Shown here piece by piece: positions 21,409-57,400 of a stretch of 64,000 bases of DNA (the first letter of the stretch is position 1; each line of letters begins with the position of its first letter). The notes under the pieces were generated by a model. It did not search any database. It had not been told where the DNA came from and worked only from the letters and a program-made list of their open reading frames with translations. This DNA comes from an uncultured Chloroflexia bacterium (GTDB taxonomy: Bacteria; Chloroflexota; Limnocylindria; Limnocylindrales; CSP1-4): assembly GCA_963748625.1 (NCBI GenBank), contig CAVVJT010000010.1:320001-384000 (forward strand), written 5' to 3'. The position numbers and the translations under genes were made by a program.

Positions 21409-21519
21409 GCCCCACGTGGGGGCCAGAACGGCATGCTCGCGTGCGTGGCCGGGTACGGAACCCGCGGTTCGTGACGCAGCCCGTGCGTGAGCCGCGCGGA
21501 TTCGCCCCCCACGTGGGCC
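21409..21519. repeat. 111-bp two-box element, copy A
   Basis: GCCCCACGTGGGGGCC ... GCCCCCCACGTGGGCC, box centres 95 bp apart. Confidence 0.8.
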
Positions 21520-21650
21520 GGCGCGACGGTGGGCGGACCGAGCGACCCTCCGGGCGACCGGGCCGGACGCGACGGTGGGCGGACCGCGCGACCCTCGGCC
21601 GGGCGACCCTCCGGGTAACCGGGCCGGGCGCGACGGTGGGCAACCCGGGG
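21520..21650. repeat. Degenerate tandem repeats abutting element A
   Basis: cgcgacggtgggc x3 and gcgaccctc x3. Confidence 0.7.
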
Positions 21651-21673
21651 CACCGGCGGCGTAGGATGCCCCG

Positions 21674-22615
21674 ATGAAGATCGGCATCGTCCTCCCCCAG
21701 GGGAGCTCCGACGGGCCGGGCGCGATCGCCTGGACCCGCATCCGCGACATCGCCCGCCACGCTGAGGCGGTGGGCCTCGACAGCGTCTGGGCGTACGACC
21801 ACCTCATCTTCCGCCTGCCCGACGAACAGGGCGTGGTGGCCGAGGACGGCATCCACGAGGCGTGGACGGTGCTCACGGCGGTCGCGGCGAGCACCGAGCG
21901 GATCGAGCTGGGGACGATCGTGCTGGGGACCGGCTTCCGGCCGCCGGCGCTCACCGCGAAGATGGCGGCCACGCTGGACGAGGTCGCCGGCGGCAGGCTC
22001 ACGCTGGGTCTGGGCACCGGCTGGCACGAACCCGAGTACCGCGCCTTCGGCTACCCCTTCGACCACCGCGCCGCCCGGTTCGACGAGGCACTCCGGATCA
22101 TCGTCCCGCTCCTGCGCGGCGAGCGTGTCACGTTCGCGGGCACCTATCACGACGTCGACGACGCCGTGCTGATCCCGGCCCCGCCGCGCCCCACCCGGAT
22201 CCCGGGGTCCGCCGCGATGCCGGGCCGCCTCCCGATCCTCATCGCCGCGAAGGGCGAGCGTGTCCTGCGCCTCACCGCCCGCTGGGCCGACGCCTGGAAC
22301 ACCGCCTGGTTCGGCCTGCCGGACGAGCGGTTCGCCGAGCGCGCCCGCGACCTCCGTGCCGCCTGCGAGGCCGAGGGCCGCGATCCGGCCACGCTCGAGG
22401 TGACGGTTGGGGTGACGGTGGCCGCCGGCGCCACGACGATCGAGCAGGGGGGCCAGGCCGCGCTGCCGGGCAGGAGCGTCGCCGAGGTCGCGCGCGGCTT
22501 CGACGCCTGGGCGGCCCTCGGCGTGGGTCACCTCCAGGTGAATCTCACGTCCGTTGACGAGCGCGCGATCGACGACCTCGCGGCGGCCCGCCGCCTCCAC
22601 CTCGGGGAGCAGTGA
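21674..22615 (+). CDS. LLM-class flavin/F420-dependent oxidoreductase
   Basis: DSVWAYDH, EAWTVL, AKMAATLDEVAGGRLTLGLGTGW. Confidence 0.92.
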   Translation: MKIGIVLPQGSSDGPGAIAWTRIRDIARHAEAVGLDSVWAYDHLIFRLPDEQGVVAEDGIHEAWTVLTAVAASTERIELGTIVLGTGFRPPALTAKMAATLDEVAGGRLTLGLGTGWHEPEYRAFGYPFDHRAARFDEALRIIVPLLRGERVTFAGTYHDVDDAVLIPAPPRPTRIPGSAAMPGRLPILIAAKGERVLRLTARWADAWNTAWFGLPDERFAERARDLRAACEAEGRDPATLEVTVGVTVAAGATTIEQGGQAALPGRSVAEVARGFDAWAALGVGHLQVNLTSVDERAIDDLAAARRLHLGEQ

Positions 22616-23436
22616 TCATGGACCTGGAACGGGCTCCGGACCACGACGGGTCGCCCGTCGACGCCGAGGTCCTACCCGAGCACGTGGCCGCCAACCGGGC
22701 CGCCTGGGACACCTACGCGCCCGACTACATCGCTGCCGGCGAGCGGGAATGGGCCCGCCTGCCCGGCGAGGAGACCTGGGGCATCTTCGGCATCCCGGAG
22801 GCGGAGATCGGCATGCTCCCCAACGACCTCGCGGGCCTCGACGCGATCGAGCTCGGCTGCGGGACGGCGTACGTGTCCGCATGGCTGGCCAGGCGCGGCG
22901 CCCGGCCCGTGGGCATCGACAACTCGCCCAGGCAGCTCGAGACGGCGGCCAGGCTCCAGCGCGAGCACGGCCTCGAGTTCCCGCTGCACCTGGGCAACGC
23001 CGAGCGGGTCCCCTACCCCGACGCCTCCTTCGACTTCGCCATCAGCGAGTACGGCGCGGTGCTCTGGGCCGACCCGTACGCATGGGTTCCCGAGGCCGCG
23101 CGGCTCCTGCGGCCCGGCGGACGCCTCCACGTGCTCACGAACGGGCTGCTGGTGCGGCTGACCGCGCCGATGGACGCCGAGGCGCCGGTGGGCGAGACCC
23201 TCCTGCGGCCGCTGTTCGGGATGCACCGGATCCAGTGGGACGGCGAGACGTCGTACGAGTTCCACCTCTCGCACGGCGAGTGGATCCGGCTGTTCCGCGA
23301 GCACGGATTCGAGATCGAGGCGCTCCTGGAGCCCCAGGTGCCGGCGGACGCCACGAGCACCTACGCGTACGTGCCCCACGCGTGGGCGCGGCAGTGGCCG
23401 TGCGAGGAGATCTGGAAGGTGCGCAAGCGCCCCTGA
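22612..23436 (+). CDS. Class I SAM-dependent methyltransferase
   Basis: IELGCGTAY, GIDNS, SFDFAISEYGA, LLRPGGRL. Confidence 0.92.
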   Translation: MIMDLERAPDHDGSPVDAEVLPEHVAANRAAWDTYAPDYIAAGEREWARLPGEETWGIFGIPEAEIGMLPNDLAGLDAIELGCGTAYVSAWLARRGARPVGIDNSPRQLETAARLQREHGLEFPLHLGNAERVPYPDASFDFAISEYGAVLWADPYAWVPEAARLLRPGGRLHVLTNGLLVRLTAPMDAEAPVGETLLRPLFGMHRIQWDGETSYEFHLSHGEWIRLFREHGFEIEALLEPQVPADATSTYAYVPHAWARQWPCEEIWKVRKRP

Positions 23437-23539
23437 TCGCGATTGCCGTCCGTCGTCGCGGTCGTGCCGTTCGGCCCTGCGGACCATGCATCGGAAAGGG
23501 CACCATGCGCACGAGCAACCCACCCCCAAGGAGGCCCGG

Positions 23540-24548
<1,009 letters not shown>

Positions 24549-24562
<14 letters not shown>

Positions 24563-25766
24563 CGGCGTGAGCTCCTCGTTGCGGGTCGCGCTCCTCGTCG
24601 CGGCGAAGGATCTCCGCCAGCGGCTGCGCGACCGCACCGCGATCCTCGTGGCGGTGGTCGCCCCGCTGGGCCTTGCGTTCATCTTCAGCCAGCTGCTGGG
24701 CGGCGCGGTGGACTTCCACGCGACCTACGTGGTGGCCGACGTGGATGGCGGCGAGCTTGGCCGCGTGCTGCGCGAGGACGTGATCGGCTCGCTCGAGGAC
24801 GCCGGCGTCGCCGACATCACCGTGGTCGCCACGGAGGAGGCGGCGCGGGCCGCCGTCGCGGATGGGGCCGCTGATGCCGCATTCATCATCCCGGCCGGGC
24901 TCACGATGGCGATCCAGGCGGGACAGGCCTCCACCGTCGAGGTGGTGGGCGCGAAGGACGCGTCCCTTGCCACCGAGGTCGCGCGGTCCGTTGCCCAGCG
25001 CTTCGCCGACGCCGTCGGGGCCGTCCAGCTCTCGATGGCGACCGTTCGCGATCTCGACGCGCCCCTGGCCCCGGCTCCGGATCGAATGGCCCAGGTGGCC
25101 GCCGCGGCCCAGGCATCCGTGGAGCCGGTGGTGCTCGTGGACCTCCAGGCGAACCTGCGCCAGCTTTCGATGCCGTCCTACTTCGCGGCCTCGATGGCGA
25201 TCCTGTTCCTCTTCTTCTCGGCGCAGGTGGGGTTCGTGAGCCTCTTCGAGGAGCGGCGCAACGGGACGCTCGCGCGGATCCTGGCCGGCCCGATCGCGCC
25301 CAACGCGGTGCTGCTGGGCAAGACGCTCGGCTCCTTCGTCCTGACGCTGGTGTCGCTGCTGATCCTGGTCATCGTCACGACCCTCACCATCAAGGCAGAC
25401 TGGGGGCCGGCGCCGGGGGTCGCGCTCATGATCGTCGCGGTCATCGTGGCCGCCATCGGGATCACGGCCCTGGTCACATCGTTCACCCGCTCCGCGGAGG
25501 CCGCTGGCGCCGCCAACTCCGCGGTCGCCATCACGCTGGGCGTCCTGGGCGGGACGTTCTCCCCCACCGCGCAGGCGCCGGAGGTCCTCGACACGGTGTC
25601 CCTGCTGACGCCCCACGGCTGGTTCCTGCGCGGCCTCGCGGACATGCACGGGGCGTCCGCCTCCTGGACCGACGCGCTGCCCGCGGTCGGCGTGCTGCTG
25701 GGCGTGGGCCTGGTCACCGGCGCCATCGGGTTCGCCCGGGCGCGCAGCCTGGTGAGCGCCCGATGA
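24549..25766 (+). CDS. ABC-2 exporter permease
   Basis: KDLRQRLRDR, EERRNGTLARI, multi-TM C-terminus. Confidence 0.9.
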
Positions 25767-25785
25767 GCGGCGCGGTGGCCACCCG

Positions 25786-26961
25786 ATGAGCGGCGCGGTG
25801 AAGGCCCTCGACCTCGCGCGCATCAACCTGCTGCGCCAGGTCCGCGATCGTGCCGACCTGTTCTTCGTCTTCGTCCTGCCCACGATCATCATCGTGGCGC
25901 TGGGCCTGCAGTTCGGCGGAACCACGCGGGCGCGCCTGGGCGTGGTCGTCCCGCCCGGTGACACCGCCGCCGCAGCGCTCGTGGAGGTCCTGGCCACGGA
26001 CGGGGCGCGATTCGCCATCCGCGAGGTCGCCGACGAGGCGGCGCTCGCCTCCCAGGTGGAGCGCGGCCAGCTGGAAGCGGGCCTCATCATCCCGGCCGGG
26101 TTCGAGGCGGCACTCGCGGGTGAGGCGCCCGTGGAGATCCGCTACGTCGGCACCAGCGGCGGTCTCACACAGGGGTTGCGGGCACCGGTCGAGGCAGCGG
26201 TCGCCCGGCTCGCGGCGGCCACGACGGCCGCGCGGGTGGCGGTGAGCCTCGACGCTGGGACCTGGGACGAGGCGCAGGCCGCGGCCGCGGCCAACCTTGG
26301 CTCCGTGCCGGGCGTGGAGGTCAAGGTCGCCCAGGTGGGCGAGGAGGGCATGTTCGCGGGCTTCAGCCAGTTCACGTTCGGTGCCTCCACGCAGCTGGTC
26401 CTGTTCATGTTCCTGACCTCGATGACCGCGGCCGGCCGACTGGTGCATACCCGCCAGATCGGCGTGTCACGGCGGATGCTGTCCACGCCCACCAGCGCCT
26501 GGACGATCGTCACCGGGGAAGCGCTCGGGCGGTTCGGCGTGGCCATGCTCCAGGCCGGCTACATCGTGGCCGTCACAGCGATCGTGTTCGGCGTGTCCTG
26601 GGGCAACCCGGTGACCGCCGGCGTGCTGATCGTGCTGTTCGGGGTCGTGGCGGCGGGCGTCGCGATGCTCGTGGGGGCCATGTCGAGGAACCCGGACCAG
26701 GCGTCGTCGGTGGGCGTGTTCATCGGTCTCGCCCTGGGCGCGCTGGGCGGCTGCATGATCCCGATCCAGATCATGCCGGACGTGATGCAGTCGATCGCGA
26801 AGGTGATCCCCCACTCCTGGGCGCTGCTGGGCCTGCAGGAGACGATCAAGACCGGTGGCGGGCTCGACACCGTGCTCCTGAACGTCGCGGTGCTCGCGGT
26901 CTACGGCGCGGTCCTGATGGGCCTCGCCGCATGGCGGTTCCGCAAGGCGATCGCCGGCTGA
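25786..26961 (+). CDS. ABC-2 exporter permease
   Basis: RDRADLFFVFVLP, LGGCMIP, multi-TM. Confidence 0.9.
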   Translation: MSGAVKALDLARINLLRQVRDRADLFFVFVLPTIIIVALGLQFGGTTRARLGVVVPPGDTAAAALVEVLATDGARFAIREVADEAALASQVERGQLEAGLIIPAGFEAALAGEAPVEIRYVGTSGGLTQGLRAPVEAAVARLAAATTAARVAVSLDAGTWDEAQAAAAANLGSVPGVEVKVAQVGEEGMFAGFSQFTFGASTQLVLFMFLTSMTAAGRLVHTRQIGVSRRMLSTPTSAWTIVTGEALGRFGVAMLQAGYIVAVTAIVFGVSWGNPVTAGVLIVLFGVVAAGVAMLVGAMSRNPDQASSVGVFIGLALGALGGCMIPIQIMPDVMQSIAKVIPHSWALLGLQETIKTGGGLDTVLLNVAVLAVYGAVLMGLAAWRFRKAIAG

Positions 26962-27007
26962 GGTCGGCTCCTCGGCTGAGGTCGGCTCCTCGGCTGAGGT
27001 CGGCTCC
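26958..27007. repeat. 18-bp tandem repeat starting at the stop codon
   Basis: ctgaggtcggctcctcgg ~2.7 copies. Confidence 0.8.
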
Positions 27008-27027
27008 CGGCCTTGACTGACGCCGTC

Positions 27028-27138
27028 GCCCCACGTGGGGGCCAGAATCAGCAGTCGCGAGCGTGGTCTGCGCGCCAAACCTCGACATTCGCCCGCGGCG
27101 CACGCTCAGCAGGGCCTGAAACGCCCCACAGGTGGGCC
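27028..27138. repeat. 111-bp two-box element, copy B
   Basis: GCCCCACGTGGGGGCC ... GCCCCACAGGTGGGCC, centres 95 bp apart. Confidence 0.8.
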
Positions 27139-27370
27139 GGACCGCACGGTGGACCGAGGCCGCACGGCTGGACCGAGGGCCACACGGCGGAAGACCGCGG
27201 CCGCACGGATGGACCGAGGGCCGCACGGCTGGACCGCGGCCGCCCCCTACGGGCCGGACCGCACGGTGGGGCCGGACTCGGCCGCCCCCTGTGGGCCGGA
27301 CTCGGCCGCACGGCTGGGCCGGACTGCACGGTGGGGCCGCGGCCTGCGCGGACGACCGCGGCTGGACGGC
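27130..27370. repeat. Degenerate minisatellite abutting element B
   Basis: Many ccgcacgg / ggacc / gggccggac units. Confidence 0.75.
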
Positions 27371-27392
27371 ACCCGGAACGTCGGACCGCCGC

Positions 27393-27430
27393 TTGCACAT
27401 CCTTCACGCCGCCTATATTCTTCACGCTGC
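27393..27430 (+). promoter_or_regulatory. Sigma70 promoter with direct repeats (possible MarR operator)
   Basis: TTGCAC-N17-TATTCT; CTTCACGC repeated on either side of the -10. Confidence 0.5.
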
Positions 27431-27431
27431 A

Positions 27432-27986
27432 TTGACCTTCTATCTGCCACGAAGTGAAGAGGATCCAGCCACGGATCGCGCGACCCTCCTGGACGAGCTC
27501 ATGGCCGAGCTCCCCTCCCCCAGCCCCGCCCAGGCCATGCGCTACTTGCGCCACTGGCCCGGCGGGCGCATCTCCCTCATCCACATCAACGTGATCAGCG
27601 TGCTCGAGGCGGACGGCCCGCAGCCGATGCGCGCCCTGGCCGAAGCGCTCGACGTGAGCCAGGCGAGCGCCACCGGGATCGTGGACCGCATGGAGCAGCG
27701 CGGCCTCGTGGAGCGGCAGCGCGACGAGGAGGACCGCCGGATCGTCCGGGTCGTCCTCACCGACGAGGGCCGCAAGCTGGTCGAGGGCGTGGCCCGGGAG
27801 CGCCAGGACCACATGCGCATCCTGCTCGACGACCTCACCGATGCCGAGTTGCAGGCCTTCCTGGTCGGCTCGCGCGCGATGCGCCGTGCCCGGGAACGCA
27901 TGCACGAACGCCTCCACGAACGGCTCCCGGAACGCCTCGCCACCTGCGCCCCCAGAGACCCCGACACCCAGGAGACCCCGCGATGA
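27432..27986 (+). CDS. MarR family transcriptional regulator (start uncertain)
   Basis: LAEALDVSQASATGIVDRMEQRGLVER..DRRIVRVVLTDEG. Confidence 0.9.
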   Translation: MTFYLPRSEEDPATDRATLLDELMAELPSPSPAQAMRYLRHWPGGRISLIHINVISVLEADGPQPMRALAEALDVSQASATGIVDRMEQRGLVERQRDEEDRRIVRVVLTDEGRKLVEGVARERQDHMRILLDDLTDAELQAFLVGSRAMRRARERMHERLHERLPERLATCAPRDPDTQETPR

Positions 27987-29710
27987 TCCCCATCCTGCGG
28001 CAGTACCTGCGGCCGTACAGCGCCCCCATCGCCCTCGTGCTGGTGCTGCTCCTGGTCCAGGCCATCGCCAACCTGTACCTGCCCGAGCTCAACGCCGAGA
28101 TCATCAACAACGGTGTGGTGCCCGGCGACATCGACTTCATCATCAGCACCGGCGCCCTCATGCTGGGCGTGACCTTCCTGCTGATGCTGGCCGCGTTCGT
28201 GGCCGTGTTCTTCTCGGCCAAGATCGCGATGGGCTTCGGGCGCGACGTGCGCTCGGCCATCTTCCGCAAGGTGGAGACGTTCAGCCAGGTGGAGCTCAAC
28301 CACTTCGGCGCGGCCAGCCTGATCACCCGCAACACCAACGACGTCCAGCAGGTGCAGCAGGTGGTGCTGCTCGCGCTCACGATGATGATCAGCGCCCCGA
28401 TCCTCGCCATCGGCGGCGTGATCATGGCCTACCGCCAGGACGGCCCGCTGACCGCGATCCTCCTCGTGATCCTGCCGATCATGGCCCTGCTCATCGGCGT
28501 CGTCATGAAGCGCGCGATCCCGCTGTTCCAGGCGATGCAGGTCAAGATCGACCGCATCAACCTGGTGATGCGCGAGACGCTCACGGGCGTGCGCGTGATC
28601 CGCGCCTTCGTGCGCACCGAGCACGAGGAGGCCCGGTTCGACGAGGCCAGCCGCGACCTGATGGACGTGGGCCTGCGTGTCAACCGCCTGTTCGCGATCA
28701 CGATGCCCGCGCTCATGCTGATCATGAACCTGTCCACCGTGGCCGTCCTCTGGCTCGGCGCCTACCGCGTGGACAGCGGCGCCATGCCCATCGGCAACCT
28801 GACCGCCTTCATCCAGTACATCACCCAGATCCTGTTCGCGATCATGATGGCGGTGGTCATGTTCGTCATGGTCCCGCGGGCGGCGGTGTCGGGGAACCGG
28901 ATCGCCGAGGTGCTCGACACGGAACCCTCCATCTGGGACCCGCCCACGCCCATCTCGCCGGCCCGCACCGGCCAGGTCGAGTTCCGTGACGTCGAGTTCC
29001 GCTATCCGGGCGCAGAGGAGGCGGTCCTGCGGGGCATCAGCTTCCGGGCCAACCCGGGCGAGGTCACCGCGATCGTCGGCTCCACGGGCTCCGGCAAGAG
29101 CACGCTCATCAACCTGCTGCCGCGCTTCTACGACGCGACCTCGGGCGACGTGCTCATCGACGGCGTGGACGTGCGCACGCTCGACCGCCAGGACCTCTGG
29201 AAGCGGATCGGCATGATCCCCCAGAAGGCCTACCTGTTCGGCGGCACGGTGGCCAGCAACCTGCGCTACGGCGACCAGGACGCGACCGACGCCGACCTGT
29301 GGCGCGCGCTGGACATCGCCCAGGGCAAGGAGTTCGTGACCGAGCTCGCCGAACAGCTCGAGGCACCCATCAGCCAGGGCGGCACCAACGTGTCGGGCGG
29401 CCAGCGCCAGCGCCTGGCGATTGCGAGGGCCCTCGCGAAGAACCCCGACATCTACGTCTTCGACGACAGCTTCAGTGCGCTCGACTTCCGCACGGACGCC
29501 AGGCTGCGCGCGGCCCTGTCGCGGGAGCTCTCCAATGCGACCGTGATCATCGTCGCCCAGCGTGTGGGCACCATCCTCCACGCCGACCGGATCGTGGTGC
29601 TCGAGGACGGGGCGATCGCCGGCATCGGCACGCACGAGGAGCTCATGGGAAGTTGCGAGACCTACCGCGAGATCGTGCTGTCCCAGGTCACCGAGGAGGA
29701 GGTCGCATGA
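27983..29710 (+). CDS. Heterodimeric ABC exporter subunit (TMD+NBD)
   Basis: SLITRNTNDV, GSTGSGKST, VSGGQRQRL, degenerate FDDSFSALD. Confidence 0.95.
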   Translation: MIPILRQYLRPYSAPIALVLVLLLVQAIANLYLPELNAEIINNGVVPGDIDFIISTGALMLGVTFLLMLAAFVAVFFSAKIAMGFGRDVRSAIFRKVETFSQVELNHFGAASLITRNTNDVQQVQQVVLLALTMMISAPILAIGGVIMAYRQDGPLTAILLVILPIMALLIGVVMKRAIPLFQAMQVKIDRINLVMRETLTGVRVIRAFVRTEHEEARFDEASRDLMDVGLRVNRLFAITMPALMLIMNLSTVAVLWLGAYRVDSGAMPIGNLTAFIQYITQILFAIMMAVVMFVMVPRAAVSGNRIAEVLDTEPSIWDPPTPISPARTGQVEFRDVEFRYPGAEEAVLRGISFRANPGEVTAIVGSTGSGKSTLINLLPRFYDATSGDVLIDGVDVRTLDRQDLWKRIGMIPQKAYLFGGTVASNLRYGDQDATDADLWRALDIAQGKEFVTELAEQLEAPISQGGTNVSGGQRQRLAIARALAKNPDIYVFDDSFSALDFRTDARLRAALSRELSNATVIIVAQRVGTILHADRIVVLEDGAIAGIGTHEELMGSCETYREIVLSQVTEEEVA

Positions 29711-31701: not shown

Positions 31702-31737
31702 TCCGGGTCGGCTGGCGCCGGCGGCCATGCCCGGATC

Positions 31738-31807
31738 GGCCGGTGCCGTGCGGCCGGTGCCGTGCGGCCGGTGCCGTGCGGCCGGTGCCGTGCGGCCGGT
31801 GCCGTGC
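31738..31807. repeat. 14-bp perfect tandem repeat x5 ending inside box 1 of element E3
   Basis: ggccggtgccgtgc x5. Confidence 0.9.
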
Positions 31808-31962
31808 ACGCGAGGCAATAGATCGGACTCCGCCTGCGCTCGCCTTTCGCGGTGGGCAACAGCACAGCGTCCATTGGTTCCTGGCGGGCCCGATCGCGCC
31901 GTCGGTGTTTCTTGCGGGCAACGGCAGGACACCACGTCCCCAAGGTATTGCTTCGGGTGCAC
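31804..31962. repeat. 160-bp four-box element, solitary copy E3 (159 bp)
   Basis: Boxes start at 31804, 31845, 31908, 31948; GCAATA...TATTGC as in E2. Confidence 0.75.
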
Positions 31963-32047
31963 GCCGCGCTGACGCACGGAGCGGCACCGTCGAAACGGGC
32001 GCTGCGGCTCTCGCCACCTGGCACGGGGAACGACCACGATCGCGTCC

Positions 32048-32997
32048 ATGGCACACGCAGCCATCGCGGCCACGCACCTCTCGAAGTCGTACGGCCGTCG
32101 CCTCGGCATCGAGGATGTCTCCTTCGAGGTCACCGAGGGTGAGGCGTTCGGCTTCCTGGGCCCCAACGGCGCCGGCAAGACGACCACGATCCGGCTCCTC
32201 ATGGGCCTGTTGCGGCCGACCTCCGGCAGGCGGCACATCCGCGGCCGAGACACCTTCAGAAAGCGGCCGCCATCCACCACGACGTCGCCTATCTCGGCTC
32301 CGACCCGGGCTTCCTCGGCGAGTTGACCGGTGCGCAGCAGCTCACCTATCTCGCGGACCTGCGCGGCCTGCCGAAGCGCGCCTGGCAGCCGATGGCCGAG
32401 CGTCTTGAGCTCGACCCCGCCGTCCGGATCCACCGCCTGTCCCGCGGCAACCGCCAGAAGATTGGCGTCGTGGCGGCCTTCATGGGCCACGAGCCGATCA
32501 TCGTCCTCGACGAGCCGACCTCCGGCCTCGATCCCCTCCTCCAGCGCGTGTTCCTCGCCCTCCTCGCGGAGGTCCGGGCGGAGGGCCGCACCGTCTTCCT
32601 CTCATCGCACAACCTCGTCGAGGTCGAGCGGTCCTGCGATCGGGTCGCCATGATCCGCGAGGGGCGCCTGGCCGAGGTCCGCAGCGTCGGCCAGCTCCTG
32701 GGTGCCCACTGGCGCTCGATCAACCTCGTGCTCGAGGAGCCGGCGGCACCGGACGCGTTCGACCTGCCCGATGTCGAGGTGGCTGCGATGACCGGTCGCG
32801 AGGTCCACCTCATGGTCCGCGGCGACATCAACCCGCTCCTCGCCAGGATCAGCGCCCACCGCGTCCTGGACATCGCGATCACGACTCCCGACGTCGAGGA
32901 CATCTTCCTGCGCCACTACCGCGACGACGCAGGTGGGCCGGCCGACGATGCGGCCGACCACCCGGCAAACCCCGAGGACGAGGAGGTGCCGGCATGA
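32048..32997 (+). CDS. ABC ATP-binding protein, frameshift ~32270
   Basis: GPNGAGKTT in the first frame; LSRGNRQK and LDEPTSGLDP in the second. Confidence 0.88.
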
Positions 32998-43642: not shown

Positions 43643-43771
43643 CGGGCTCGATGGTGCCCTACCGGACCGGGTGCGTGCAGGGCGGTTCGGCCCGGACGTG
43701 GTTCTTCGGCCCGGACGTGGCTCCGCGCAGCGCGGCCCGCGCCTCCGCGCTCACGCCCCTTCCTGCAGCCT

Positions 43772-43882
43772 GCCCCACGTGGGGGCCGAATCCTGACCTC
43801 CCACGCACGAACCGGGGGCACAACCCGGGGTTTCGCGCGCAGCGCACGCTCGACAGGGCTCGAAACGGCCCCGTGGTGGGGC
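43772..43882. repeat. 111-bp two-box element, copy C
   Basis: GCCCCACGTGGGGGCC ... GGCCCCGTGGTGGGGC, centres 95 bp apart. Confidence 0.8.
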
Positions 43883-43955
43883 GTTCCGCAGCAGACAGGC
43901 CGCGTCGCATCGAACGGGGCACTCCCGGCGGCGGTCGAGGCGCTACGATGCCGCC

Positions 43956-47858: not shown

Positions 47859-47911
47859 GGCCTTGGAGGAGCGCACCGCCCACCGCTGAGGCAGGCGCCT
47901 CCAGGGGGCAG

Positions 47912-47935
47912 CAGCATCCCAGCAACCCAGCATCC
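47912..47935 (+). promoter_or_regulatory. Operator iterons for RHH antitoxin
   Basis: CAGCA(T/A)CC x3 directly before the -10 TACCAT. Confidence 0.6.
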
Positions 47936-47950
47936 TGTACCATCGGCCCC

Positions 47951-48205
47951 ATGAAGGTCACCTTCGACATCGACGCCGACCTGTACCGGTCGCTGAAGGT
48001 CGAGGCCGCACGCGCTGATCGAAGCGTCCGAGACGTCGTCGCCGATGCCATCGCCGCATGGCTGGACGGCCAGGAGCAGGCAGAGGACCTCGCGTCGGCC
48101 GCGGATGCCCTCGCCGAGTACCAGCGCGATGGCGGCACGTCGGCTTCGGCCTACTTCGAGCACCTCGCGGCGGAGGCGCGCGCGGAGTACGGGTCCGCCG
48201 ACTGA
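47951..48205 (+). CDS. Ribbon-helix-helix antitoxin
   Basis: MKVTFDIDADLYRSLKVEAA..SVRDVV; overlaps the toxin start. Confidence 0.8.
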   Translation: MKVTFDIDADLYRSLKVEAARADRSVRDVVADAIAAWLDGQEQAEDLASAADALAEYQRDGGTSASAYFEHLAAEARAEYGSAD

Positions 48206-48477
48206 TGCCGGCCGAGCCCTATCGGGTGGACCTGGCGCCGGCGGCGGCCCGACAGCTCCGGCGGCTCCCGCCGGGTGACGCCGCCCGCCTGCGCGGCCCG
48301 ATCCTTGCCCTCGGCCTGGAGCCGAGACCGCCGGGCTCGACACCGCTCGTCGGCAGTGACTGGTGGCGGCTGCGCATGGGCGACCTGCGCCTGATCTACG
48401 CGATCGACGACGCGGCACGGGTGGTGGTCATCCTGCGTGCCGCGCGCCGCAACGAGAGCACCTACCGCTCCCGCTGA
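48205..48477 (+). CDS. RelE/ParE family toxin
   Basis: YRVDLAPAAARQL, PRPPG, WRLRMGDLRLIYAIDD, RRNESTY. Confidence 0.9.
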   Translation: MPAEPYRVDLAPAAARQLRRLPPGDAARLRGPILALGLEPRPPGSTPLVGSDWWRLRMGDLRLIYAIDDAARVVVILRAARRNESTYRSR

Positions 48478-48513
48478 TCGCTCCGGCGGTCACTCAGGGG
48501 ATCGCTCCGGTGA

Positions 48514-50568: not shown

Positions 50569-50619
50569 GCCGGGGAGTATCGCCCCTGCCGACCCCAGAC
50601 CCCTGTCGGCCCGACCGGC

Positions 50620-50730
50620 GCCCCAACATTGGGGCGCTTCGAGGATTCGCACGAGGAGCTGGACCGCCGAAACGACGGTTGGGGCAATGAGCTCTGCATG
50701 CTGACCACGGATTCGACCCATGGTTGGGGG
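50620..50730. repeat. 111-bp two-box element, copy D
   Basis: GCCCCAACATTGGGGC ... GACCCATGGTTGGGGG; closely similar to copy E. Confidence 0.85.
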
Positions 50731-50775
50731 CACCCGGTATGAACGCTGCGCTGCGACCCCCCCGTGGCTCCCGGC

Positions 50776-51174
50776 TCAGATGCCGAGTACGGGCACCGTC
50801 CCCGCCGCCCCGGCCGCCACCAGCAGCGCCCGGATGTCCTCGACGTCGCCCGTCAGGATCGCGGAGCCAGGGACCGCAAGCGCTTCGAGCACGACGCATG
50901 CATCCGCATCGCTGCCCCGGCCGGCGGCCACGCGGAGCCCGACGGCCGTGTGCCCGAGAGGCGGCAGCAGAGGAAGCTCAATCTCGATCACGCTGAGCAC
51001 ATGCATGATCCGTGCGGTCGAACGCGCGCCGAACAAGGCCTCCATGGCACACAGCACCGGCACGACCGCCACCCGACCGCGATCCGTTGCCTCATCGAGG
51101 CGGGCACGAGCACTTGCGTCCGCACGCTCGAGGGCGATGAGGACGCCGGTATCGAGCACGATCCTCGGCGTCAG
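50776..51174 (-). CDS. PIN-domain (VapC-like) toxin
   Basis: IVLDTGVLIALER, DADACV, ILTGDVEDI; start codon uncertain. Confidence 0.8.
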   Translation of the reverse strand: MTPRIVLDTGVLIALERADASARARLDEATDRGRVAVVPVLCAMEALFGARSTARIMHVLSVIEIELPLLPPLGHTAVGLRVAAGRGSDADACVVLEALAVPGSAILTGDVEDIRALLVAAGAAGTVPVLGI

Positions 51175-51404
51175 AAGACTCGGTCGATCTCGTCCCACTG
51201 CCTTCGCGCCTCGGCTTGGACGTCGTCGGGAATGGGGCCGAACTCCTCGTCCATCTCGTCGAGCAACTGCTTGATCCGGATCCGCTGAAGGCGTTGGGCG
51301 ACAACGTCATTCACGAACGCCGAGAAGTTCCCTTCGCCGGCGACCTCCATGGCCTCCCGCGCAACGCGCTCCTCGAACGCGACGGACTTCTTCACCACCG
51401 CCAT
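51171..51404 (-). CDS. CopG/RHH-like antitoxin
   Basis: KKSVAF..NFSAFVN..LLDEMDEEFGPIP. Confidence 0.8.
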   Translation of the reverse strand: MAVVKKSVAFEERVAREAMEVAGEGNFSAFVNDVVAQRLQRIRIKQLLDEMDEEFGPIPDDVQAEARRQWDEIDRVF

Positions 51405-51423
51405 GTGCTGTCGCCTCGCTCCA

Positions 51424-51442
51424 TTCCTACCGCCGGTAGGAA
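51424..51442. promoter_or_regulatory. Antitoxin operator palindrome
   Basis: TTCCTACCG-C-CGGTAGGAA. Confidence 0.65.
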
Positions 51443-51545
51443 CACTAGGCGGCGAGCCTCCAACCGTCAACCCGATCTCCCGACTGCCATCACCAACGTG
51501 CCCGATCCTGGCCGAGGCCGCTTATGCGCCGCTTACGCCCTCGGA

Positions 51546-51656
51546 GCCCCACCCTTGGGGCGCATCGAGGATTCGCACGAGGAGCTGGACCGCCGAAACC
51601 GCCGTTGGGGCGATGAGCCCTGCACGCTGATCCCGGAAACGCCCCATAGTTGGGGC
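51546..51656. repeat. 111-bp two-box element, copy E
   Basis: GCCCCACCCTTGGGGC ... GCCCCATAGTTGGGGC. Confidence 0.85.
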
Positions 51657-51725
51657 GCGGCTGCAGCTGGGCGCGGCTGCCGCGACGCACAGAACTGCGT
51701 CCCCCGCCCCACCGAGGTGCCGGCC

Positions 51726-52280
51726 ATGACCACCCTGCCTGACCGCCCCAACACTGCCCTCGTCGTGATCGACGTCCAGAACGGAGTCGTCGCCGACTGC
51801 TACCAGCGCGACGAGGTGGTCGCTCGGATCCGCACGCTCGTGGAGCGGGCTCGCGCCGAGGGCACCCCCGTGATCTGGGTTGCCGACAACGCCGAGGGCC
51901 GGGAGATCGGCAGCGAGCCCTGGAAGATCGTGCCCGAGCTGCCGCACGAGGACGCCGACCCCCTCATCGACAAGCAGTACGGCGACGCCTTCGAGGAGAC
52001 CGACCTCGAGGCGGTCCTGGCGCGTGCCGGCGTCGGGCGGCTCGTCGTCGCGGGCGCCCAGACGGACGCCTGCATCCGGTCCACCATCCACGGCGCCTTC
52101 ACGCGCGGCTATGACGTCACGCTCGTCAGCGATGCCCACACCACCGAGGACTTCACCGCCTGGGGCATGCCGGACCCCGCGGCGGTGATCGCGATGACCA
52201 ACATCTCGTGGCGCTACCACTCGGCGCCCGGGCGGACGGCGGCGGTCGTGGACACCGCCGAGGTGACGTTCGCCGGCTGA
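51726..52280 (+). CDS. Isochorismatase/cysteine hydrolase family protein
   Basis: ALVVIDVQ, KQYGDAF, GAQTDACIRST, DAHTT. Confidence 0.92.
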   Translation: MTTLPDRPNTALVVIDVQNGVVADCYQRDEVVARIRTLVERARAEGTPVIWVADNAEGREIGSEPWKIVPELPHEDADPLIDKQYGDAFEETDLEAVLARAGVGRLVVAGAQTDACIRSTIHGAFTRGYDVTLVSDAHTTEDFTAWGMPDPAAVIAMTNISWRYHSAPGRTAAVVDTAEVTFAG

Positions 52281-52357
52281 CCCGAGAGCGCGGATCTCAT
52301 CCCTGCAAGGATGGAATCGGCCAACTATCCCCGTGCGGATCGAATCCGCCGGATGGA

Positions 52358-53217
52358 GATCAGTAGCCCGACCAGATCCTGATGTCGCCCTTGTCGACGT
52401 GGAAGACATACGGGCAGTACATCCGGTCGTTGACCGCGGTGACGTCCGCGTGGCCGCCGCAGAACGTGTCGGTCAGGCCCTTGGATGCGCCGTCCGTGAC
52501 GATCACGCGGTAGTGGGAACAGTTCCCGAGTGGATCTGATGAGGCGGGACCGGCGACGAGGAGACACTCCCAGCCGGTGATCTCCGCTGCCGGGGCCCCC
52601 GACGTCGCCGTGAAGAAGCGCACCGTGTCGACGGTTCCCCGGGTCTGGTTGCCTGCCCAGGCGTCGTCGCCGGTCATCGAGCTGGACTCGTAATAGCCGT
52701 CACGAAGCGCCCCGGTGGCAGTCGCGTCCACCTGGAGGCGGAACATCGACGTGGCCGCGGGATCGACAAGCAGGCTGCCGATGAACGTCCCCGCGACGTG
52801 CTTCGGCATCACCTTCGCACTGGCCAGGGCGACCATGCGCTCCTTGGTGGTGCAGTGCTTCGTCGGGTAGTTGATGGCGCGCATCACGCCGGTCGTCCTG
52901 TTGACGCACGAGTACACGGTGCCGCCCGAGGAGGGGATGGCCGCCACCGCCACCGATCCGGCGACCGCGAATGCCGCGAGCACCGCACCCACGGCGATGA
53001 CACGGCGGACAGGAGAGAGCCGCATGATGGGCCTCCGTCGATTGCCCGCGGGTCGGTCCCGCCAGTGGCTGGGCGCGGTCCCGGCGGCCGGAGTTGCGGC
53101 CCGCGCGTCATCGCCTCCCGTGACGGTTGGATGCTGGGCGCGCGGCGACCACCGCGCCAGTGCTCGATGGCCTGTGCACAGCGCACCGATGATTACCCGC
53201 CAACCGGCGGCGGACGG
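52358..53217. repeat. ~860-bp direct repeat, copy 1 (gene plus ~190 bp upstream)
   Basis: Matches 55739-56597. Confidence 0.9.
52360..53025 (-). CDS. Secreted Cys-containing hypothetical protein, paralog 1
   Basis: GGAGG RBS, signal peptide, AIPSSGGTVYSC, six Cys. Confidence 0.8.
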   Translation of the reverse strand: MRLSPVRRVIAVGAVLAAFAVAGSVAVAAIPSSGGTVYSCVNRTTGVMRAINYPTKHCTTKERMVALASAKVMPKHVAGTFIGSLLVDPAATSMFRLQVDATATGALRDGYYESSSMTGDDAWAGNQTRGTVDTVRFFTATSGAPAAEITGWECLLVAGPASSDPLGNCSHYRVIVTDGASKGLTDTFCGGHADVTAVNDRMYCPYVFHVDKGDIRIWSGY

Positions 53218-53335
53218 CTCCAGTCTGGCCCGCGGTGCTCGTCCAGCGCGCGGGGCCACATAACAGGGGGTTGAGCCCCGATGCGTACCCTGCCGGCACC
53301 ACCCCGCCATCCACCCGCCGGTGGAGCGCACGTCC

Positions 53336-53608
53336 ATGCCCACCCTCCTGGACATCGCGGGATTCGTCTTCTACATGGTCATGTTCGACTGTCAGGAGCC
53401 GCGTCACGTCCACGTCGCACGCCGGGGCGACCGACGCGCTCCAGCCAAGTTCTGGATCGACCCGATCCGGCTCGAGACACCCGGTCGCTACAATAGCCGC
53501 GACCTCGCGAGGATCGCGAGGATCGCGAGGCTCATCGAGGAGCACCAGCCGATCCTCGTCCGGCGATGGGACGAGGAGTGCGAGCGGGCAAGGGAGAGCG
53601 GGCGATGA
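53336..53608 (+). CDS. DUF4160 family protein (putative toxin)
   Basis: MPTL..GFVFY..EPRHVHV..AKFWI..RWDE. Confidence 0.85.
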   Translation: MPTLLDIAGFVFYMVMFDCQEPRHVHVARRGDRRAPAKFWIDPIRLETPGRYNSRDLARIARIARLIEEHQPILVRRWDEECERARESGR

Positions 53609-53886
53609 TCCAGCCGGCGGTCGTGCGGGATGTCCGCGTTTCGGATCACCTCATCACCATGGTGCTCAAGGACGGTCGCGAGGTGTCGGTGCCAACCGCG
53701 TGGTCGGATCGGCTGTCACGCGCCACCCGGGAGGACCGCGAGCACTTCGTGATCGACGGTGACGGCATGATCGTCGCCTGGCCCGACATCGACGAGCACA
53801 TCGGCGTGTGGACGATGCTGGGCGTGCCCGAGGAAGAGGTGTTCGCGGCCGCCGGGCTTCGCGTGTCGGCCAGCACCCGAGGGTAG
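53605..53886 (+). CDS. DUF2442 family protein (putative antitoxin)
   Basis: LKDGREVSVPTAWSDRL..AT..WPDIDEHI. Confidence 0.88.
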   Translation: MIQPAVVRDVRVSDHLITMVLKDGREVSVPTAWSDRLSRATREDREHFVIDGDGMIVAWPDIDEHIGVWTMLGVPEEEVFAAAGLRVSASTRG

Positions 53887-54010
53887 CGGCACTGGGCCGG
53901 GGTGGCAGTCAAGGGGATCCGGCGAGCCGCGAAGAGCCTCGCGTCGGGCGGCTGGTGGTCACCGGCGCCCAGCCGGACGGCGGCGGTCGTGGACACGGCC
54001 CCGCGGGGCC

Positions 54011-55366
54011 TCAGACCACCTGGCGTGGCACCGTCGCAGCGAGTCCGTCGTCGAGCCACGCGAGCGCCCACCGGGCGAACGACGACCCGGCGCCCACGAG
54101 CCCCCAGCCCGGGCCGGGTTCGAGCGACGCCACGATTCGCCGGTAGCTCTCGACCTGGTGGAGCGCGCCGACCGGCAACGCAAGCCGCGCCGCCTCCTCG
54201 AGGTCCGCGCGAGGGGCGGCATCGGCCCAGGCGGCGAGCCATGCGTCGAGCATCGACTGCCGGGCTGCCACGTCCCTCACCCGATTGAACCAGGTCGCCA
54301 GGTCCGTGAACGGGTGGCCGATGGCTGCGTCCGACCAGTCGATGATCACGACCCGCTCGTCCGTCTGCAGGATGTTCCATGGGTGGAAGTCCCCGTGCAC
54401 GACCGTGGGTCCCGGGCCAAGCGTTGCCAGGCGCTCGCAGGCATCCCCGAGGCGCGGTGCGGCGCGGCGGAACCGCGGGCCGATGTCGTCCGCAAAGCCT
54501 GCGACGAACTCGCTGTCGAGCAGCTCGGGGAGTGACGCGGCAAGCGCCATGGGACCACGGTCCTCGAGCATGATGCCGTCCAGCCCATCGATCGTCGCCC
54601 GCTGGATCGCCGCCAGCGCGCCGAGCGATGCCGACCAGGTGTCAACCGGCTGATTGCCGACGACGACGCCGCCGGCATCACGCATGAGCAGCCACCCCTC
54701 GGCGGCATCGGTGGCGAGAACCTCGGGAACCGAGCCCGGGACCGCGTGGTGGAGCGCCGCGGTCGCGGCGGGCTCGGCATCGAACACCCGAGCGCAGGCC
54801 TTCATGAATGCGCGCCCGTCCGTCGTGTCGGCCCGCAGCACCGCCGAGATCGGCCACAGCATCTCGACGGTGGGCGCCGCGAGCGCGGGCGTCCCAGCCT
54901 CGTCGAGCCGGCTGATCATCCACCGGCGGGCTCGGTCCTCGAAACCCGGCAACTCCCAGCGCTGTCGTCGCGGATCGATGACGCCCGTCTCCAGCTCCGT
55001 GAGCCAGCGGGCGACGTGTGGACCCGTGACCGTGTCGCCCCGAAGCCCGTCGAGCCGGGAGTCGCCAAGCATGATCCACGTTGCGGCACCAGGACCCTCG
55101 TACGCCAACGGCTCGGCCTCAACCAGGATGTCCGTCGCCGAGCCCTCCGGATCCCCGCCGACCGGCGCGACCCGCATGATGGGGTGCGCGCTGCCGAGGT
55201 AGTGCACGAGGAGCGCCGCGATCGGCGGGTATGCGTCGACGTCGTCGATCAGCCCGAGCAGCGGCAGCCGGATCGCCCCGGTTGGGGTGATCTCGACCAG
55301 CACCGCCTGGCGGCGCGCGTCGCCGGCGAGAAGGTGCACGGGCCATTGGGCCGGGACGTCAGCCAT
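54011..55366 (-). CDS. Aminoglycoside phosphotransferase-like kinase
   Basis: AFMKA, VHGDFHPWNI, IIDWSDA..GHP. Confidence 0.85.
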   Translation of the reverse strand: MADVPAQWPVHLLAGDARRQAVLVEITPTGAIRLPLLGLIDDVDAYPPIAALLVHYLGSAHPIMRVAPVGGDPEGSATDILVEAEPLAYEGPGAATWIMLGDSRLDGLRGDTVTGPHVARWLTELETGVIDPRRQRWELPGFEDRARRWMISRLDEAGTPALAAPTVEMLWPISAVLRADTTDGRAFMKACARVFDAEPAATAALHHAVPGSVPEVLATDAAEGWLLMRDAGGVVVGNQPVDTWSASLGALAAIQRATIDGLDGIMLEDRGPMALAASLPELLDSEFVAGFADDIGPRFRRAAPRLGDACERLATLGPGPTVVHGDFHPWNILQTDERVVIIDWSDAAIGHPFTDLATWFNRVRDVAARQSMLDAWLAAWADAAPRADLEEAARLALPVGALHQVESYRRIVASLEPGPGWGLVGAGSSFARWALAWLDDGLAATVPRQVV

Positions 55367-55542
55367 GTCGAACCTGCTGGCCCCACCAGTGCCGTCGGCG
55401 ATGGCTGCGGCGGGCGGGGTCCCAGAACCCTACGGCTCGCCCCAGACTCGCGCAAGGGTGATGGCCTCACGCGTGCCCGGTCGCATCGTCTCCCGCGTAC
55501 CGGTCGGCCAGCGGGAACTGCGATCCCGGCGTGCCCGGTCGG

Positions 55543-55677
55543 CCAGCGGGACCTGTGTGCGGGATTCCGCACGGTCTGCCCGCCTGGCGACCGGAAACGC
55601 TCGATCCGCGCCTGAATCCGACTGCCTTGCCCGCTGTCCGGGCCGCCTGTGCAGGATTCCGTCGTAAGGCCCGCTGG
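55543..55677. repeat. 135-bp element with terminal inverted repeats
   Basis: CCAGCGGGACCT ... AGGCCCGCTGG; left flank duplicated. Confidence 0.5.
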
Positions 55678-55738
55678 GCGGCAGCGGAAGCGAGAGTCGG
55701 GCGCCAGCGCGCCAGCGGGCGCCCGACCTCCGGACGGT

Positions 55739-56597
55739 GATCAGTAGCCTGACCAGATCCTGATGTCGCCCTTGTCGACCTTCCATACGTACGGGCAGTA
55801 CAGATCGGTGGGTAGGCGACGTGACGTCAGCGCTGCCGCCGCAGAAGGTGTCGGCCAGCCCCTTCGACGCGCCGTCCGTGACGATCACTCGGTAGTGGAT
55901 GCAGGTCCCGACCGGGTCTGGGCCGGCGGGATCCCTGTCCAGGAGGCACTCCCAGCCGGTGATCTCCGCGGCGGGGGCCCCCGAGGTCGCCGTGAAGAAG
56001 CGGAGGGTGTCGACAGTTCCCCGGGTCTGGTTGTGCGACGAGTCGTCCGGTCCGCCCATCCCGTTGGACTCGTAGATCCCGTCACGCAGTGCACCGGTGG
56101 CGGTCGCGTCCACCTGGATGCGGTACATCGCGGTGAGCGCGGGATCGGCGTAGCTGCCGATGAAGGTCCCGGCCACGTGCTTGGGCATCACCTTCGCACT
56201 CGCCAGGGCGACCATGCGCTCCTTGGTGGTGCAGTGCTTCGTCGGGTAGTTGATGGCGCGCATCACCCCGGTCGTCCTGTTGACGCACGAGTACACGGTG
56301 CCGCCCGAGGAGGGGATGGCCGCCACCGCCACCGATCCGGCGACCGCGAATGCCGCGAGCACCGCACCCACGGCGATGACACGGCGGACAGGAGAGAGCC
56401 GCATGATGGGCCTCCGTCGATTGCCCACGGGTCGGTCCCGCCAGTGGCTGGGCGCGGTCCCGGCGGCCGGAGTTGCGGCCCGCGCGTCATCGCCTCCCGT
56501 GACGGTTGGATGCTGGACGCGCGGCGACCACCGCGCCAGTGCTCGATGGCCCGGTGCACAGCGCACCGATGATTACCCGCCAACCGGTGGCGGACGG
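55739..56597. repeat. ~860-bp direct repeat, copy 2
   Basis: Matches 52358-53217. Confidence 0.9.
55741..56404 (-). CDS. Secreted Cys-containing hypothetical protein, paralog 2 (frameshift ~55810)
   Basis: N-terminal ~84 aa identical to paralog 1; ends YCPYVWKVDKGDIRIWSGY in a shifted frame. Confidence 0.8.
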
Positions 56598-56662
56598 TGA
56601 GCCGTGAGCAGCCTTGCGTCGGGTGGCTGTATCGTCGACGCCCCAACCGAGGAGGACTGCTG

Positions 56663-57226
56663 ATGCGCCGCGTGACCTATGCCATGGGCGTCTCGCTCGA
56701 CGGCTACATCGTCGGGCCGGACGGCGGCTTCGACTGGACGACGCCCGACGCGGATGTCTTCCGCTTCTGGATCGAGGAGACTCGAGAGCTCGGCGTCCAC
56801 CTGATGGGACGGCGGCTGTACGAGACGATGCTGTACTGGGAGACCGCCGACCAGGATCCATCGATCGACGACGCGGAGCTCGAGTGGACCGCGCTCTGGA
56901 AGCCGCTCCCGAAGGTGGTGTTCTCCACCACGCTGTCGGCGGTGCAGGGCAATGCCCGCCTGGCGTCGGGCGGCCTGGCCGAGGAGATCGAGCGGTTGCG
57001 AGCCGAGCCCGGGGAGGGCGACATCGCGATCGGCGGCGCGACGCTCGCTGCCGAGGCCGCGGCGTTGGACCTGATCGACGAGTACCGGGCCGTGGTCCAC
57101 CCGGTGCTGGTCGGCGGTGGCATCCCGTTCTTCCCGCAGCGCGAGCGCCACGTGGATCTCGAGTTCGTCGAGACCCGCACCTTCAGCTCGAAGTTCGTCT
57201 ACCTCCGCTACCGCGTGGCGCGCTAA
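56663..57226 (+). CDS. Dihydrofolate reductase/RibD C-terminal family protein
   Basis: SLDGYI, LMGRRLYE, KVVFSTTL, GGATLA, LIDEY..PVLVGGG. Confidence 0.92.
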   Translation: MRRVTYAMGVSLDGYIVGPDGGFDWTTPDADVFRFWIEETRELGVHLMGRRLYETMLYWETADQDPSIDDAELEWTALWKPLPKVVFSTTLSAVQGNARLASGGLAEEIERLRAEPGEGDIAIGGATLAAEAAALDLIDEYRAVVHPVLVGGGIPFFPQRERHVDLEFVETRTFSSKFVYLRYRVAR

Positions 57227-57289
57227 CCCTGGCCGGGGCGTCGGCCGGGCGGCATCCACCGTCAGGACCTGTGGTCAGGCCGCACCCCC

Positions 57290-57400
57290 ACCCCAACTGT
57301 GGGGGATTCCGGCCGCTCGCCCTCGTGGCTCACCCACCGGATCGACAAACGGGAGGTCGAGCCATGCGTCGAACACGGCCAGACGCCCCATAGCTGGGGG
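57290..57400. repeat. 111-bp two-box element, copy F
   Basis: ACCCCAACTGTGGGGG ... GCCCCATAGCTGGGGG, centres 95 bp apart. Confidence 0.75.

Follow-up and report, generated by a model that had tools for sequence, protein, structure and literature searches.

What kind of DNA is represented by short intergenic elements that begin and end with palindromic boxes set at an almost constant distance from each other? The question is raised by the window considered here, a stretch of 64,000 nucleotides from an uncultured Chloroflexia bacterium (Chloroflexota; Limnocylindria; Limnocylindrales; CSP1-4), comprising positions 320,001 to 384,000 of the forward strand of contig CAVVJT010000010.1 (assembly GCA_963748625.1), in which six such elements begin at positions 21409, 27028, 43772, 50620, 51546 and 57290. 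The host genome has 4.63 Mb with 71% G+C and is 98.3% complete, with an estimated contamination of 7.7%. The six elements belong to a dispersed family of fixed length with fold-back symmetry, an intergenic location biased towards the 3′ ends of genes and a patchy distribution among related species, in a genome without a RAYT, the transposase that is linked to repetitive extragenic palindromic (REP) sequences. They are probably lineage-specific, non-autonomous palindromic repeats that resemble REPINs (REP doublets forming hairpins). Most likely, the family is recognized through its boxes by some protein and represents non-autonomous or formerly mobile DNA.

A profile built from the six window copies matches each of them with E values of 1e-16 to 1e-23, and both ends of each copy are formed by a short palindromic box, CCCCA-N2-4-TGGGG or CCCAC-N0-2-GTGGG. 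An earlier note on the window, made without database searches, had placed the elements at the same positions and given them a length of 111 bp and a distance between box centres of exactly 95 bp. Read from the sequence, this distance is 97 bp at 21409, 96 bp at 27028, 96.5 bp at 43772 and 95 bp at 50620, 51546 and 57290; the spacing is nearly fixed, at 95–97 bp, rather than exact. The length of 111 bp is correct for the core, and one subfamily is longer, approximately 129 bp, owing to outer [TC]GC[AG] ends. The recurrent A/T patches that the note had pointed out are confirmed in the family alignment, where columns 37–39, 71–72, 80–82 and 113–115, corresponding to offsets 18–20, 51–52, 60–62 and 92–94 in the element, are 67–96% A/T compared with 29% element-wide. 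The view that the interiors are mostly unalignable does not hold, as the 76 full-length copies found in the genome align over 152 columns with few single-base gaps and homology is detectable from the interiors alone.

These copies were collected by searching the host genome with the six-copy profile in three rounds at a cut-off of E < 1e-3. The family consists of 92 non-overlapping matches spread over six contigs; among the 76 full-length copies, 69 are exactly 129 nt long in the common frame set by the profile coordinates. The mean column identity of the alignment is 60%, against which the CCC and GGG columns of the boxes are 97–100% conserved. The copies are clumped, with a variance of 1.99 for a mean of 1.03 in 50-kb bins and one 60-kb stretch that contains 11 copies. 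When the spacing of pairs is counted for 4230 loosely defined boxes, the spike that the earlier note had predicted is found genome-wide: the 95–99 bp bin holds 84 pairs and the 90–94 bp bin 50, while nearly all other 5-bp bins hold 11–44. At single-base resolution the spike spans 92–97 bp and peaks at 96 bp (42 pairs). The exceptional bin, 130–134 bp, also holds 50 pairs, and this bump is caused by a separate family, which supplies 12 or more of the 45 box pairs listed at a spacing of about 132–133 bp. Under a strict definition there are 200 boxes in the genome, 113 of them within family matches; of the 87 others, 69 lie inside called genes, which is what chance would give, and 18 lie elsewhere. 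The box doublet, and not the single box, is the unit.

The separate family is a second set of long hairpins, palindromes of about 158 bp with CCCGC-N4-5-GCGGG boxes some 132–133 bp apart (for example, G000:C4:60469-60614, C7:299471-299616 and C10:809235-809380), and is probably the "160-bp family" to which the earlier note had compared the present elements. A description of the present family was not found in the literature searched, supplementary files of REP papers, which may list REP families from related phyla, being outside that search. When one genome of each species was searched for the exact pattern of two boxes, excluding the host's own records, 27 stretches were returned. Most of these carry the pattern on one strand only and were taken for chance without being read. 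Four stretches with the pattern on both strands were read and rejected as relatives: three are Myxococcota tandem arrays that share only CCCCACGTGGGG, and one, from Limnochordales, does not look like the present element. The Myxococcota arrays (L106, L109 and L110, from Polyangia, Kofleriaceae and Myxococcales records of metagenome-assembled genomes) are built of 40–95-bp units that each contain the palindrome CCCCACGTGGGG(G), and their interior sequence is unrelated to the hairpin family.

The relationship between the two halves of the element is one of complementarity. When each strand of the six window copies is folded singly, all 12 structures join the left box to the right box in one long imperfect hairpin, with energies of −50 to −71 kcal/mol and z-scores of −0.25 to −4.8; many other copies fold likewise and some break into several shorter hairpins. 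A fold-back structure of 42 pairs, derived by a column-pair dynamic programme, is satisfied in 74.0% of the cells of the 76-copy alignment, compared with 34.8–48.6% when the partners are slid by 1–3 columns, and changes on both sides of a pair are seen in 304 cells compared with 195 ± 12 in shuffles (0/500 as high). Columns 37–39 of the A/T patches face columns 113–115 in an internal loop, and columns 70–71 together with 80–81 adjoin the apical loop. The patches are often unpaired, columns 37 and 115 being A-A or T-T in 38 of the 76 copies. The fixed spacing and the A/T patches reflect the geometry of the hairpin, and not how readily a looping site bends. Greedy re-orientation of the copies was unreliable, the elements being near-palindromes.

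Genomic location is strongly biased. All but two of the 92 matches are intergenic by crude gene calls based on G+C content at third codon positions (GC3), as are all six window copies, which the earlier note had likewise called intergenic; one gene has been called with a 5′ end that overlaps the copy at 51546, but the Pfam domain of that gene starts only at residue 67. Convergent, tandem and divergent spacers contain 28, 49 and 13 copies, respectively, against approximately 14, 51 and 24 expected (p ~1e-4), and in tandem spacers 40 copies are closer to the 3′ end of the upstream gene and nine are closer to the 5′ end of the next gene (p ~9e-6). With the strand of each copy chosen by folding energy, the better-folding strand shows no preference with respect to genes (20 co-oriented and 21 anti-oriented).

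Among related bacteria, a covariance model of the family (E ≤ 1e-4 in the genus and E ≤ 0.001 in the neighbouring family, with 44–76 candidates scored per genome) gives matches in at least 10 of the 69 other species of the genus and, among the candidates scored, in none of 16 genomes of the neighbouring family; the carriers include G062, G060, G005 and G063. The closest carrier is the species G062, in which matched stretches show 70–96% nucleotide identity (mostly 81–91%) and synteny is conserved. The spacer syntenic with that of the first window copy measures 187 bp in G062 and 348 bp here; it gives no match to the model and aligns only at the gene ends. For the copy at 57290, G062 possesses a homologue of 87% identity, which has unalignable flanks and a different gene order around it, and G062 carries another copy at a place where the host genome has none. 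This pattern of presence and absence fits gain, loss or movement; the sites are not cleanly empty because spacers diverge too fast at that distance. Contigs assembled from public reads, which cover only small parts of the stretch, were short, none bridging an element and none with a joint of element size, and they are uninformative on habitat or polymorphism.

The fixed spacing had been interpreted in the earlier note as a looping or wrapping site under selection for length and bendability rather than for sequence. As stated, this proposal is unsupported, since the interiors are homologous and their halves are inverted repeats; the fixed length it invoked is real, its A/T patches fall on the internal loop and the apex of the hairpin, and a protein may still bind the boxes. 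A broader form of the idea is that of a double-stranded protein-binding site with a nucleoid-structuring or regulatory function, in which a dimer would bind each box and the boxes, about nine turns apart, would loop or wrap the spacer between them. Bacterial interspersed mosaic elements (BIMEs) of Escherichia coli are reported to bind IHF and gyrase. The near-invariance of the box CCC and GGG columns, the palindromic nature of each individual box, which fold-back alone does not require, the tightly fixed spacing and the A/T patches at conserved symmetric offsets, so often unpaired, would all suit such a site. Looping, however, has no need of interior halves that are complementary far beyond the boxes. 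The absence of the family from most species of the genus and from the syntenic spacer of G062 is hard to square with a structural function in the host, the promoter-bearing divergent spacers are avoided, and a candidate binding protein was not found. We therefore consider a binding site of this type to be unlikely.

The family is itself composite, as judged by eye and by clustering. Subfamily A, the members of which have CACGTG-type boxes and include the copies at 21409, 27028 and 43772, scores nearly equally on both strands, and about half of its arms extend to outer [TC]GC[AG] ends; a tetranucleotide of this form lies within the outer 11 nt of up to 37/76 left and 42/76 right arms, arms that hold two being counted twice. 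A second group, subfamily B, to which the copy at 57290 belongs, combines 4-nt box loops with a strand-asymmetric interior; the copies at 50620 and 51546 form a small pair apart from both larger groups. By eye, each arm independently bears one of a few A/T-patch variants. The boxes remain near-invariant even in copies that are otherwise only about 55% identical. Eleven shorter matches hit mainly the centre of the profile: nine of these are parts of longer elements with ATCC/GGAT-type hairpin ends (for example, ATCC...GGAT-ended elements at G000:C10:797847, C10:836509 and C7:694228), and the remaining two retain the right-hand box of the family. The host genome thus contains the box types CCCCACGTGGGG, CCCCA-N4-TGGGG and ATCC/GGAT; in the species G005 a homologous core is flanked by another box type, ATTCACGTGTGGATCA, built around CACGTG, and the species G004 has a further variant. 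Since the core is common to types with different boxes, the superfamily keeps its core and swaps its ends.

In 27 of the 76 copies the terminal 11–18 nt of the element, which are specific to the copy and include the outer half-box, are directly repeated a few bases outside the same end, compared with 1–9/76 when the flanks of other copies are used and 1/76 against the opposite flank. Examples are found at G000:C10:1336955-1336994, at C7:17490-17520 and in the window, where the right terminal 14 nt of the copy at 51546 are repeated 2 nt outside the element (51657–51676). Short tandem arrays abut the ends of elements in G005 and of some copies in the host. The right terminus of the window copy at 21409 contains the start of a tandem repeat of about 50 nt. 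Replication slippage provoked by the hairpin would be the ordinary explanation for the terminal duplicates, and the footprint of a copying mechanism would be the alternative. A different reading of the whole family is that of replicators that would be independent of any RAYT and would be copied by an unrecognized enzyme or by template switching. It would suit three observations: terminal boxes are exchanged as modules around a core that subfamilies and species have in common, more than a third of the copies duplicate their own terminus outside the same end, and the boxes are near-invariant in copies that are otherwise so diverged; on balance we find it rather improbable.

The elements also receive insertion sequences (ISs). 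On contig C7 a copy with CACGTG-type boxes is interrupted at its centre by an IS30-family element that occurs only once (G000:C7:657687-659061; L093:1188-2562), with inverted ends of its own and a transposase of 392 amino acids (HTH_38 and rve domains). On contig C10 an IS110-family element cuts the CACGTG core of a right box at its middle (G000:C10:1336981-1338250; L155:816-2090); its open reading frame encodes 344 amino acids (DEDD_Tnp_IS110, 91 bits), and the remaining half-box follows the IS. IS110 elements number one in the host and seven in G005, with none in G062, G060 or G063, and the one G005 copy that was checked does not interrupt an element. Reports of REPs as targets of ISs are found in PMC1525189 and in several papers on IS110 elements.

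Taken as REPIN-like repeats, the elements consist of two short REP-like palindromic boxes in inverted orientation, flanking a spacer of about 80 bp with complementary halves, so that the whole 111–129-bp unit folds into one long imperfect hairpin as single-stranded DNA or as RNA from either strand. Some protein, possibly one that is now lost, may have recognized the near-invariant boxes and copied the units around the genome, and the copies would persist downstream of genes, where they are least harmful. As a side effect, the hairpin in this position probably influences the 3′ ends of transcripts, by termination or through mRNA stability, and the copies may also act as landing sites for ISs. 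The second suggestion of the earlier note, that of a non-autonomous element with its cognate protein encoded at another place, comes close to the evidence: the family is dispersed and patchy, its boxes are near-invariant and no partner gene adjoins the copies.

Several of the results in this and the next two paragraphs weigh against the REPIN-like reading, and some bear on other explanations. With regard to the fold, pairing in the largest subfamily (47 copies) amounts to 76.5%, compared with 77.5 ± 0.5% predicted from column composition, and a second cluster (19 copies) has a small excess (70.2% compared with 66.7 ± 0.7%). As pairing within the largest subfamily is no better than composition predicts, the covariation comes mainly from differences between subfamilies, each of which is palindromic itself, and it gives no demonstration of compensatory evolution or of ongoing selection for the hairpin. 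The 42-pair structure was derived from the very alignment on which it was tested, and RNAalifold applied to the mixed 76-copy alignment returned only two 3-bp local box hairpins. The statistics of genomic context rest on the crude GC3-based gene calls. A run of at least four T follows either end in none of the 76 copies, so that a terminator role is a matter of inference only. The canonical intrinsic terminator was rejected as a candidate: the G+C-rich hairpin is present, but there is no T-run and no orientation bias. An explanation that would make the fold functional is a structured RNA under selection, whether a small RNA or a cis-acting element of the 3′ untranslated region that serves as a terminator or stabilizer. 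It would account for the very stable hairpins, for the bias towards gene 3′ ends and for the both-side pair changes between subfamilies; it is opposed by the unbiased orientation with respect to flanking genes, the 13 copies in divergent spacers, the missing U-tract, the lack of excess pairing in the main subfamily and the absence from most congeneric species. Rfam 15 contains no family that matches the elements, either in the window at the gathering threshold or, for 10 of the 76 copies, at E ≤ 1. A search of sequencing runs, made for DNA, listed no run recorded as RNA. A selected RNA is thus very unlikely.

The evidence for mobility is similarly restrained. The median identity between nearest neighbours is 80% and only one pair of copies is identical; the copies are therefore old and show no sign of recent movement. 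An exact comparison of a filled with an empty site was not obtained in this diverged genus, in which longer gene matches have 70–78% identity and synteny is broken. The earlier note had considered a known miniature inverted-repeat transposable element (MITE) with target-site duplications. Direct repeats of at least 10 nt across the element are not in excess (25/76 copies compared with 18–30 in controls), a comparison that duplications of 2–8 bp would escape for want of exact ends or empty sites. A classical MITE would be a deletion derivative of a DDE-type IS, moved in trans through its terminal inverted repeats, and three properties of the family recall this: the arms are long inverted repeats, about half of the subfamily A arms have outer [TC]GC[AG] ends, and the family is scattered through the genome and unevenly distributed among species. 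Besides the lack of target-site duplications of at least 10 nt, the bases just outside the ends are, by eye, inverted (cc...gg) rather than direct. The host genome contains no long element bounded by the family ends, the split copies holding unrelated IS30 and IS110 elements with their own ends, and an interior core common to families with different ends is the opposite of what MITEs usually show. These features make a classical MITE quite implausible.

No partner protein emerges for REPIN-like repeats in this genus. The Y1/RAYT family (PF01797) is found in 0/70 genomes of the genus, including the host, by a search that was positive in 6 of 14 control genomes, and TnpB is found in only 1/70, that one being a non-carrier of the family. 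Integron integrase remains below the cut-off, the best TIGR02249 match scoring 83 bits against 265, similar to what ordinary tyrosine recombinases score in each of the 14 control genomes. There is no recurrent neighbour among 330 clustered flanking proteins, the largest cluster having seven members. The earlier note had proposed looking at genes flanked by two copies; the 16 proteins scanned between 12 close pairs of copies are unrelated to one another, and the genes include those for glycosyltransferases, an ECF sigma factor, FdhD, a TPP enzyme, a peptidase S51 and toxin–antitoxin proteins. The integrase result bears on the suggestion that the elements are attC-like integron-cassette sites or sites for another tyrosine recombinase. 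The layout resembles that of attC sites, imperfect palindromes of 60–140 bp in which each end carries two short sites in inverted orientation. GCCCAAC and GTTGGGG, found in some boxes of subfamily B, resemble attC core motifs, and small toxin–antitoxin-like genes abound in the right part of the window. Against this, not only does the integrase fall short, but the copies lie on six contigs beside ordinary housekeeping genes rather than in one co-oriented array, and most boxes have no AAC/GTT core. The attC reading is close to refuted.

The six window copies, all given without strand, have the following positions and neighbours. Copy 1 (21401..21529, core 21409–21519) belongs to subfamily A, with CACGTG-type boxes, and lies between SHOCT/bPH_2 and luciferase-like monooxygenase genes, both on the plus strand; a single long hairpin is predicted for both of its strands. 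Copy 2 (27020..27148, core 27028–27138), also of subfamily A, lies between ABC-2 permease and MarR genes, both on the plus strand. The last subfamily A member, copy 3 (43762..43890, core 43772–43882), occupies a divergent spacer between a metallophosphoesterase gene (minus strand) and an ACT-domain gene (plus strand). Just downstream of a DEAD-box helicase gene (minus strand) is copy 4 (50612..50740, core 50620–50730), which has boxes with 4-nt loops and fold z-scores of −3.3 and −4.1. Its interior is 88% identical to that of copy 5 (51538..51666, core 51546–51656), which is located upstream of an isochorismatase-family gene. Copy 6 (57282..57410, core 57290–57400), of subfamily B, is flanked in a convergent spacer by a RibD_C gene (plus strand) and a DUF2442 gene (minus strand), and its fold z-scores are −4.8 and −4.3.

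The window has further features besides the family. Two c-di-GMP-II-GAG riboswitch aptamers are matched on the minus strand, at 53042–53127 (59.3 bits) and 56421–56506 (54.5 bits; gathering threshold 40), both upstream of minus-strand genes without a Pfam family (52360–52983 and 55430–56362). Small toxin–antitoxin-like and phage-derived genes are found at 47951–48477, 53321–53886, 57671–57961 and 59993–63000; the run includes ParE, DUF4160/DUF2442 pairs, DUF2283, HTH_3 and Gp49-like genes, and its gene order differs from that in G062. The window also encodes a UvrD2-like helicase with an HRDC domain, the nearest clusters of which are from Actinomycetota rather than Chloroflexota, and the taxonomic placement of the genome is ambiguous.

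The family adds another lineage, a high-G+C uncultured genus of at least 70 species, to those with REPIN-like hairpins, with no RAYT in any genome searched, and so sharpens the question of how orphan palindromic repeats arise and spread. Together with its sister families it accounts for the greater part of the conspicuous intergenic symmetry in the host genome, and all of them should be masked before this genome is searched for regulatory sites or small RNAs. The presence or absence of individual copies could serve as strain markers.

How, then, does the family compare with known systems? The attC sites of chromosomal integrons, such as the Vibrio cholerae repeats, are imperfect palindromes of fixed length with paired end sites and a variable centre. 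The present elements resemble them in their fixed length, imperfect palindromy and paired short sites at both ends, and differ in the absence of an integron integrase and of a co-oriented cassette array and in that most copies have no core motifs. BIMEs, the enterobacterial repetitive intergenic consensus/intergenic repeat unit (ERIC/IRU) and the Correia elements of Neisseria are intergenic imperfect palindromes of 100–150 bp, often situated at the 3′ ends of transcription units and composed of mosaic modules; Correia elements, moreover, carry a TA duplication and are known to be linked to specific ends. The intergenic imperfect palindromes described here share the placement at 3′ ends and the mosaics of modules with these elements, to which, however, they have no sequence relation.

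Closer parallels are found among REPs. Di Nocera and colleagues describe CGTC-class REPs that apparently lack a transposase of their own, and their account includes head-to-head dimers with 20–100-bp spacers, which may form one large stem-loop, as well as heterodimers (PMC3733652). The present family likewise consists of palindromic dimers for which no dedicated transposase was found, with arm variants that combine independently. In contrast to that class, CGTC occurs near the box in only seven and nine of the 76 arms on the two sides, and the boxes have an unrelated sequence with a stem of 5–7 bp rather than 8–9 bp.

REPINs are characterized in PMC3116915 as having two conserved ends at a fixed distance, with length and hairpin capacity as the critical features of the spacer; in the Pseudomonas fluorescens SBW25 examples given there, 71 bp separate the 16-mers and the doublets are the replicative unit. 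The present family differs in having no RAYT/Y1 in the host or in 69 other genomes of the genus, and hence no REPtron, and in lacking the GT[AG]G foot of the hairpin (GTAG in 0/76 left and 0/76 right arms, GTGG in one and five). Its copies are also more diverged than those of a currently replicating population would be. As the searches for the GT[AG]G foot and for a RAYT both failed, we file the family as a REPIN-like orphan and not as a member of the REPIN–RAYT system. The likeness extends to conserved inverted palindromic ends at a fixed distance, here 95–97 bp between box centres; to a less conserved spacer that has kept its length and its capacity to form a hairpin; to an extragenic location and over-represented doublets; and to the occurrence of several sequence types per genome, as reported for REPINs in PMC3116915 and PMC6006769. 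In build the family is REPIN-like, in behaviour it is probably so too, and it is of a kind that is already known, that of hairpin repeats such as the REPs and REPINs of E. coli and Pseudomonas.

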